In this document: in pieces, positions 8,030 through 24,380 of the stretch
Layout: every line of letters begins with the position of its first letter
How positions within the stretch are numbered: the stretch's first letter is position 1
From: a virus
Reading direction: 5' to 3' (one strand)
Virus record (IMG/VR): IMGVR_UViG_3300022602_002120
Coordinates: 124,802 to 188,801 of that record
DNA length: 64,000 bases
Notes under the pieces: model-generated
Told to the model about the DNA's origin: nothing
Seen by the model: only the letters and a program-made list of their open reading frames with translations
Database searches by the model: none
Program-made: the position numbers and the translations under genes

Positions 8030-8578
8030 TTATCTAATGAAAGTGCTACGTGACTTAGGAGTTTCCCACCAATCAATTTGTTTAACAGTAACATCTAATT
8101 TAGACATTTTTGCTTCAACTAAGTTTGCCATCCAAGCACTTAAATTTTCACTTGTAGGAACAAAGTCAACTACTAGGAATCCTTCAAAATATTCGTATTC
8201 GGGTGTGTTTGGTTCTAATCCATCTAGGTTCAAATGCCAACCTGCTACCACATCTGTGTTAGGAACCATCACAGGTACTAGTTCACGATTGTCCACAATG
8301 CTGTCATACAAAGGATCACTCTTATCAATTACAAACTGATGATCAATATATTCATTAATCCATTTCTTTAACCATTCCAAATGACGGAAGTCAGTTACCA
8401 TGCCAGTACTATCTAAGTTACCTGTATTGCTTTGTAAGAATACCTGCATCTTACCTTCATGTCCATGTAAATGACGGCAAGCACACTTTAAATCTGCCGC
8501 ATATTCGCCATTTAGTTGTTGTGTCCACACACGATGCCCGTAGCAAAACTCGAAGGTCTTATCAATTATCCATGCCAT
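8030..8578 (-). CDS. queD: 6-carboxy-5,6,7,8-tetrahydropterin synthase (T-fold)
   Basis: GHRV...CRHLHGH metal/catalytic motif, PTSENL, WWETP. Confidence 0.9.
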   Translation of the reverse strand: MAWIIDKTFEFCYGHRVWTQQLNGEYAADLKCACRHLHGHEGKMQVFLQSNTGNLDSTGMVTDFRHLEWLKKWINEYIDHQFVIDKSDPLYDSIVDNRELVPVMVPNTDVVAGWHLNLDGLEPNTPEYEYFEGFLVVDFVPTSENLSAWMANLVEAKMSKLDVTVKQIDWWETPKSRSTFIR

Positions 8579-16520: not shown

Positions 16521-16550
16521 ACTCCGATGTTGAGCCAGTGGATTGGCAAT
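16521..16550 (-). promoter_or_regulatory. candidate riboswitch-like pseudoknot in folE 5' UTR
   Basis: GCCA-AUCCAC-UGGC hairpin then UCAACAUCGGAG; loop UCC can pair with GGA of the SD. Confidence 0.4.
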
Positions 16551-16559
16551 TGATAAGTT

Positions 16560-16589
16560 AGTATAACATGATTATTTAGGTCATGTCAA
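16560..16589 (-). repeat. promoter direct repeat copy 1 (folE promoter)
   Basis: TTGACA-N18-TATACT with nested CTAAATA; 16562-16589 matches 21506-21533 at 25/28 nt. Confidence 0.8.
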
Positions 16590-23930: not shown

Positions 23931-24380
23931 TTAAATAGTGACAGTTTGGTAAGGTTGGGTTTGGTTATAAAAGATGGTACACCCGTTTTCACCATCTTCA
24001 CTTACTTCAATGTGAACATCGCGATTGGGATACTTTTGTGCAATCTGCACGTATAGATCATCTGCGATCATCTCGCATGATCTGTAATTTAGTTCTAATA
24101 CGGAACCTTTACCCACATACAGGCTTTCAAGCCATCGTTTGAACTGGATGAACTCGATGTCCCTGTCATTGTGCCACACATCAATTGACACCCTGAAATG
24201 AAAAATGTGGCGGTGAGGATTAGCAAGGAACGATACATCATATTCATCTCCAGTTTTAAGTAATGGGTTAACTGCGGCATCTGGGTAGCAATGAATGCCT
24301 TCCTTCTGGAAAGTAACCCAAATCTTTCTCTTAGCTGCAATTAGAATTCTATCTACTAAGTCACGTTCTGCTTGTATCAT
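23931..24380 (-). CDS. QueD-paralog T-fold protein, DpdL-like
   Basis: LANPHRHIF matches the LxxxHRHxF signature I recall for DpdL; DRDIEF, SCEMIA, V.EDGENG. Confidence 0.7.
   Translation of the reverse strand: MIQAERDLVDRILIAAKRKIWVTFQKEGIHCYPDAAVNPLLKTGDEYDVSFLANPHRHIFHFRVSIDVWHNDRDIEFIQFKRWLESLYVGKGSVLELNYRSCEMIADDLYVQIAQKYPNRDVHIEVSEDGENGCTIFYNQTQPYQTVTI

Follow-up and report, generated by a model that had tools for sequence, protein, structure and literature searches.

In preQ1-I riboswitches, the specificity cytosine directly adjoins the P1 3' strand on its 5' side and follows an A in types II and III or a U in type I (PMC11625349). Type III has the smallest preQ1-I consensus, in which the P1 3' strand comes after AC, with C pairing with the ligand (PMC11625349; PMC10622847). 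Its short, pyrimidine-rich loop pairs with GGA in the Shine-Dalgarno (SD) motif, and the likeness to preQ1-I pointed out in the initial annotation of the present locus is apt in this respect, type III being the closest subtype (PMC10622847). THF-II riboswitches are longer hairpins with internal loops and not pseudoknots; they occur in Gram-negative bacteria and sense folates (PMC9881143).

We analysed the leader of folE in a 64-kb stretch of viral DNA (hereafter the window, meaning the whole stretch), which belongs to a 188.8-kb record. The leader is a real, conserved pseudoknot that sequesters the ribosome-binding site, and it is a candidate for the smallest known riboswitch, with a ligand that is probably a 7-deazaguanine-type base. 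Conservation of the element before folE extends to well over 100 different phage sequences. The promoter -10, stem, 6-nt loop, SD and AUG described in the initial annotation are all correct when read on the minus strand. The features of the locus are as follows.

16584..16589, minus strand: -35 hexamer TTGACA of the folE promoter, from a consensus scan
16560..16568, minus strand: extended -10 element TGtTATACT, in which TG precedes the second hexamer (TATACT, 16565-16560)
16544..16547, minus strand: 5' strand of stem P1, GCCA, pairing with 16534-16537
16538..16543, minus strand: loop AUCCAC, near-invariant in 139 distinct instances
16534..16537, minus strand: 3' strand of P1, UGGC, covarying with 16544-16547
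16526..16533, minus strand: linker L3, UCAACAUC, with AAC and UC conserved and the extra A16528 specific to the subtype
16522..16525, minus strand: SD sequence GGAG, invariant in the alignment
G16525, G16524 and A16523, minus strand: 3' strand of P2, pairing with C16540, C16541 and U16542
16513..16515, minus strand: folE start codon AUG, from the list of open reading frames, 6 nt past the SD with the spacer UAAUAA
15805..16515, minus strand: folE, coding for GTP cyclohydrolase I of 236 aa (Pfam PF01227, 4.1e-39; NCBIfam FolE, 6e-41)

The folE gene is the first of a tightly packed minus-strand run, and a gap of 60 nt on that strand separates it from an unannotated ORF of 243 aa with its stop at 16576-16578. 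The folE promoter is strong and of the sigma-70 type, with an 18-nt spacer that contains the TG; it matched the consensus at 11 of 12 positions and was one of the two best promoter matches within 10 kb. Judging from the position of the -10, transcription of folE would start at about 16551-16554. In relatives, the -10 ends 5-12 nt upstream of P1, so the motif occupies the entire 5' UTR. The element consists of a P1 of 3-5 bp, a loop AUCC(A/U)C, a linker WWAAC(A)UC and the SD GGAG, and is about 26 nt long (range about 24-28 nt). Within the loop AUCCAC of the window, L1 is the A, the 5' strand of P2 is UCC, and L2 consists of A and the putative specificity C. In relatives, GGAG is followed by the start codon ATG, TTG or GTG at roughly 5-10 nt.

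Many related loci have a promoter of the type TTGACA-N-CCTAAATA-N-TAnnnT ahead of the motif, and this TTGACA/CCTAAATA type occurs four times on the minus strand of the window, starting at 16589, 21533, 30231 and 34494. It represents a family of promoters in which part of the spacer is conserved, TTGAC(A)-N-(C)CTAAATA-N-TAnnnT, and CCTAAATA itself was found six times on the coding (minus) strand of the window and not at all on the plus strand. In other loci, the place of the TTGACA/CCTAAATA type before the same motif is taken by a second conserved promoter-like type, (A)GTTGCA-N-...GTTAAAATAA, which lies about 10-45 nt upstream of the motif in L017, L021, L036, L041, L058, L067, L096 and others. 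Since two promoter types precede the same motif, the motif is independent of promoter class.

The comparative data place the motif far beyond chance. A total of 80 IMG/VR loci were fetched through the FolE protein, and the sampling was therefore blind to the leader. By regular expression, the element was present in 60 of these loci, as a single copy on the coding strand that ends shortly (a few bases) ahead of the folE start. With a covariance model derived from 69 sequences, exactly one match was obtained in 58 of the 80 loci and in the window, at 26-49 bits; the best background score was 10.8 bits. From an open pattern scan that covered all of IMG/VR, 120 stretches were obtained, in about 80 of which the loop is flanked by at least 3 complementary bases. 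All but four of the latter precede folE, the exceptions being three at a contig end and one (L161) without folE; none of the stretches with 0-2 flanking pairs was accompanied by folE. The FolE proteins downstream of the open-scan elements are 39-92% identical to that of the window, and a second FolE clade of only about 40% identity also carries the element. The element occurs once per genome in five large related phage fragments and in the 188.8-kb record of the window. Weak secondary matches of the covariance model in related genomes (13-15 bits) were rejected as noise, having no hairpin.

The specific pattern was also run against 185,579 bacterial and archaeal genomes, where 2 instances were real and the other 27 matches were random and lay inside coding sequence. 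The sole cellular instances of the motif are in L615, a 5.5-kb contig of a Crocinitomicaceae MAG, and L616, a 4-kb contig of a Lishizhenia MAG, both of them short contigs with the phage promoter and a folE resembling that of the phages (77-83% identity). The contigs probably represent phage DNA that was binned into Crocinitomicaceae MAGs, and the binning may hint at the host. A blastn search against isolated phages gave only one distant folE match, indicating that there is no cultured close relative; by tblastn, the nearest was Sinorhizobium phage Phosso (64%).

The element is absent from about a quarter of the close relatives, in which the same promoter runs directly into the SD, and it is therefore dispensable. 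On a tree of 214 FolE proteins, its presence and absence switch about 27 times. In five loci, an unannotated ORF of 129-132 aa, without a Pfam family, is inserted between the element and folE. Examples are L064:1947-2345, L138:548-937, L147:1892-2281 (minus strand) and L181:1479-1877. From the arrangement of the sequence, the motif would control the SD of this ORF in such phages, and folE has its own SD downstream. In addition, FolE often starts with TTG (L007, L011, L016, L033, L103 and other folE loci), and in many relatives the conserved FolE core is separated from the motif-linked start by an N-terminal extension that varies and reaches up to about 45 aa.

The initial annotation had made its proposal depend on conservation and stem covariation in homologous leaders; the leaders are conserved, and the stem covaries. 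Pairs were counted in 83 distinct hairpins, and covariation was assessed in 95 model-aligned distinct sequences. The closing pair of P1 is C-G in 57 hairpins, A-U in 24 and G-C in 2; the second pair is U-A in 29, A-U in 27, C-G in 26 and G-C in 1; and the third is G-C in 78 and C-G in 5. The fourth pair is Watson-Crick in 69 of the 83, with four pair types. All 95 sequences (100%) keep Watson-Crick pairing at each of the three inner positions, and each of these pairs shows compensatory changes: both sides were changed in 37, 61 and 6 sequences at the closing, second and third pair, respectively. The covariation score of P1 was reached by none of 500 shuffles, slid controls scored about 0, and RNAalifold independently predicted the same helix. 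The result held when the phylogeny was taken into account, with 9-12 out of 9-12 independent contrasts compensating (p 0.0005-0.004). The loop is near-invariant: among 139 distinct instances, its second base is U in 134 and C in the other 5, its fifth is A in 96, U in 42 and C in 1, and its last base is C in 139. AAC lies 6 nt from the loop in 131 of these instances.

The linker varies together with the stem. Two subtypes were recognized, one with a C-G or G-C closing pair and the linker AAC-UC, and one, to which the window belongs, with A-U as the closing pair and the linker AAC-A-UC. The extra A is present in 51 of 51 sequences with an A-U closing pair and in 0 of 88 others, and on the FolE tree this link was upheld by all 11 of the independent contrasts (p about 0.001). 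Such a dependence suggests a base triple, and by analogy with L3 of compact H-type pseudoknots, the linker may lie in the P1 groove and touch its top pair.

For P2, the loop UCC and the SD GGA are nearly invariant, so that ordinary covariation counting is uninformative. An exhaustive IMG/VR pattern for the subtype of the window (class B) with an ACCC loop gave 15 matches, of which 13 were true motifs, and all 13 carry GGGAG. In this state CCC:GGG restores three pairs, and GGAG is kept for the ribosome. The reciprocal exhaustive IMG/VR pattern, AUCC followed by GGGAG, gave zero matches. The proposed pseudoknot pairing of UCC with GGA is thus borne out by a compensatory CCC:GGG variant, seen in 13 of 13 cases versus 0. 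The 13 motifs belong to three stem families (CGCA/UGCG, UGCA/UGCA and GGCA/UGCC), and the ACCC/GGGAG state has about three origins on the FolE tree; the tree-aware test of P2 gave p 0.25, the contrasts being too few to reach significance. One uncompensated exception, L030 of the other subtype (class A), combines ACCC with a plain GGAG. Broad ACCC-loop scans were abandoned for the specific exhaustive patterns, as random GC-rich matches dominated among the matches listed. Separately, divergent leaders were observed at three loci. L020 and L023 (about 2436-2470) have an 8-nt loop, ACACCCUC, with the SD AGGAA, and L240 (1449-1484) has a 7-nt loop, ACUCCCC, whose CUCC faces GGAG, so loop-SD complementarity is retained in L020/L023 and L240 despite differing loop sequences. 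L350 contains a decayed copy of the leader.

The genes around folE point to 7-deazaguanine synthesis. In the window, the minus-strand run from folE includes genes for a phosphoribosyltransferase (PRTase), a QueE-like radical SAM enzyme (PHROG 3e-55; NCBIfam QueE N-terminal matches) and MetK. Two T-fold proteins are encoded at 8030-8578 and 23931-24380, both on the minus strand; one has the QueD motif CRHLHGH (CxxxHGH), and the other has LANPHRHIF. The latter fits LxxxHRHxF, the signature proposed for DpdL, the decarboxylase of 7-carboxy-7-deazaguanine (CDG) (PMC10516641), and this T-fold protein is thus DpdL-like. The DpdL-like gene lies 2-8 kb from folE in 5 of 5 relatives checked, and so does, in all five, a conserved neighbour of 531 aa that has no Pfam, PHROG or PDB sequence match. 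Across about 358 loci, folE is flanked by a QueE-like gene in 160 and by a PRTase gene in 108. Neither QueC nor a canonical TGT was detected with Pfam in the 188.8-kb record and five relatives, these records being 33-70% complete. Two T-fold proteins without QueC and TGT predict a QueC-less route to 7-deazaguanine. With FolE, QueD, QueE and a DpdL-like protein but no QueC, the pathway would end in CDG or 7-deazaguanine and not in folate or preQ1, which makes 7-deazaguanine or CDG the probable ligand. A guanine-like ligand also fits reading by a cytosine. The pterin ligand considered in the initial annotation looks less probable, since the pathway genes nearby are all part of the 7-deazaguanine route; pterin and THF were ranked low as the neighbours are QueD, QueE and DpdL-like genes and not folate genes.

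These features can be combined into a mechanism. P1 (16544-16547 with 16534-16537) would present the loop AUCCAC, whose UCC would pair with the GGA of the SD to form P2, and the conserved linker (AAC...UC) would run along the P1 groove. In the closed knot the ribosome would be kept from the SD, and the translation of folE would fall. Since P2 has only three pairs and P1 is weak, the closed form would be expected to need added stabilisation. The likely stabiliser would be a small guanine-like ligand that is stacked between P1 and P2 and paired with the last loop C, like preQ1. If this ligand is a product of the pathway, it would exert feedback at the GTP-consuming first step. On balance, we lean slightly towards the view that the whole folE 5' UTR is a cis-acting, ligand-sensing H-type pseudoknot that serves as a feedback off-switch. 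A more specific and tentative proposal, which we consider possible, is that it represents a new phage-only riboswitch class of about 26 nt, the smallest natural one, which would sense 7-deazaguanine or CDG and not preQ1 through a pocket re-wired to have A in L1 and C ahead of the SD, and would throttle the entry of GTP into a QueC-less DNA hypermodification pathway in giant aquatic phages.

The leader might instead be a protein-dependent translational operator, in which a phage protein, either FolE itself or a dedicated repressor, reads the loop and linker and closes the knot on the SD. In T4, gp43, gp32 and RegA act in this general manner on their own messages or on others. A conserved loop on a covarying, variable stem at the SD is typical of phage translational operators such as those of T4 gp43 and RegA and the MS2 coat operator, and an element that is found only in phages and only with folE is what autoregulation would lead one to expect. 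Like the operators of T4 (the gene 32 pseudoknot, gp43, RegA), the element is a small leader structure at or near the SD through which translation would be repressed. However, those operators are bound by protein and have another sequence and layout, and no partner is indicated here. The conserved unpaired bases of the loop and linker hold across FolE clades of about 40% identity and at least 2 promoter types, and the motif persists in varied habitats; any protein partner would need to have been conserved along with the motif in very divergent phages, and none was identified. Moreover, the C after A or U beside the P1 3' strand, the AAC linker and the pairing with the SD reproduce the layout of the preQ1-I pocket. 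We regard a protein operator, the leading alternative, as unlikely.

It is also rather improbable that the leader is a ligand-independent structure, such as an attenuator that fixes folE translation at a low rate, an mRNA-protecting 5' stem-loop or an RNA thermometer, with neither a metabolite nor a protein being sensed. Stem-loops at the 5' end are known to stabilise mRNAs, the hairpin here is at the very 5' end of the transcript, and some relatives do without it and have no obvious replacement. On the other hand, such a structure would need neither the roughly ten near-invariant unpaired bases nor the link between the linker A and the closing pair nor the fixed 6-nt spacing. The P1 hairpin is weak (mean -4.1 kcal/mol), and by nearest-neighbour energies a P2 of three pairs would be too weak for a fixed block.

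An operator or cruciform acting at the DNA level, for a transcription factor overlapping the start, is very improbable. The inverted repeat does lie directly downstream of the -10, a common position for operators. However, its arms vary freely and only their complementarity is kept, whereas operators conserve the sequence of the arms; its conserved parts are asymmetric, confined to the coding strand and include the SD; and compensation between the loop and the SD would be meaningless for duplex DNA. Finally, a chance resemblance without function, for which one could cite the fold of the window leader (minimum free energy -5.1 kcal/mol and z -0.48; 49 of 200 shuffles were at least as stable) and single-sequence folding in general, which was no better than chance (z -0.15 to -0.92), is effectively refuted by the conservation and covariation, and the sequence pattern occurs once in the 64-kb window versus 0.00 expected.

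If the ligand-sensing reading is true, the element would set a new lower size limit of about 26 nt, compared with 30-36 nt for preQ1-I. It would also be one of the rare riboswitches that belong to phages and not to their hosts, and would mean that phages control the synthesis of modified bases by metabolite feedback. The chemistry of the DpdL-type pathway is still only predicted (PMC10516641), and the ligand preference could reveal which 7-deazaguanine intermediate accumulates in QueC-less (DpdL-type) pathways. The small size of the knot and its natural compensatory variants may make it convenient for studying RNA folding, and synthetic biology could use it as a compact part.

Among the known RNAs, THF-II (the folE motif, RF02977) resembles the element in being located in the folE leader and controlling translation (PMC9881143). 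Kinship with THF-II, which the initial annotation had mentioned as occurring in folE leaders, was rejected on account of the lack of an Rfam match, the different architecture and the 7-deazaguanine context. The Rfam 15 cmscan that had been suggested was carried out on the leader of the window and 12 related loci (E ≤ 10) and returned no family at the motif, and a full-text literature search found no description of it. An experimentally validated type III preQ1-I leader of E. coli K-12 (yhhQ, L625:9170-9220) also had no match in Rfam 15 at E ≤ 1. As Rfam misses this type III control, its silence is weak evidence and leaves room for kinship. Annotation pipelines based on RF00522 would likewise miss type III preQ1-I. 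The covariance model of the element gave no match to the yhhQ leader of E. coli.

Types I and II of preQ1-I (the queC leaders of B. subtilis and T. tengcongensis; RF00522) share with the element the pseudoknot and the C preceded by U or A (42 U and 96 A here), and their translational examples show partial occlusion of the SD (PMC10639078). They differ in their loops of about 10-12 nt, a P1 of 5 bp, a P2 of four steps and a long A-rich tail. Type III, represented by the yhhQ leader of E. coli/Shigella, is closer. In both cases, an H-type pseudoknot makes up the whole leader, a pyrimidine-rich loop pairs with the GGA of the SD, a C preceded by A stands directly 5' of the P1 3' strand, and the linker contains UUAA(C/U); by analogy, the translation of a gene related to 7-deazaguanine would be regulated in both. 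The E. coli type III leader reads AUUGGG-UUCCCUCAC-CCCAAU-GGUUAAUCAAAAAGG, and that of the window reads GCCA-AUCCAC-UGGC-UCAACAUC-GGAG. In contrast to type III, the loop here has 6 nt and not 9, L1 is a single A in place of the UU whose U contacts the ligand, a C takes the place of the ligand-reading A before the paired G's, L3 is 6-8 nt long and not A-rich, and P1 has 3-5 bp. The carriers and genes differ as well, large uncultured phages and folE here versus gamma-proteobacteria and a transporter in type III, and since the phages appear to have neither QueC nor QueF, they would not be expected to make preQ0 or preQ1.

With regard to membership in preQ1-I, the H-type topology is present, as seen from the covariation of P1 and the compensation in P2, and so is the specificity C (139/139). 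The ligand-contacting L1 uridine (U6; 'UU') is absent, L1 being a single A (G in one lineage); the U after L1 behaves as a base of P2, since it changes to C together with the change of A to G in the SD. The A-rich L3, whose last adenine, in type III the first adenine of the SD, reads the minor-groove edge of the ligand, is also absent, and an invariant C stands before the paired G's; the two conserved adenines of AAC could dock in the P1 groove. The size of preQ1-I (P1 of about 5 bp, loop of 9-12 nt, aptamer of 30-36 nt) is not matched by the element. As for riboswitches in general, the element is a conserved, structured leader that is tied to one metabolic gene and has the SD built in. Taken together, the comparison of sequences suggests that the element works like preQ1-I, of which it would be at most a new variant and not a demonstrated member.
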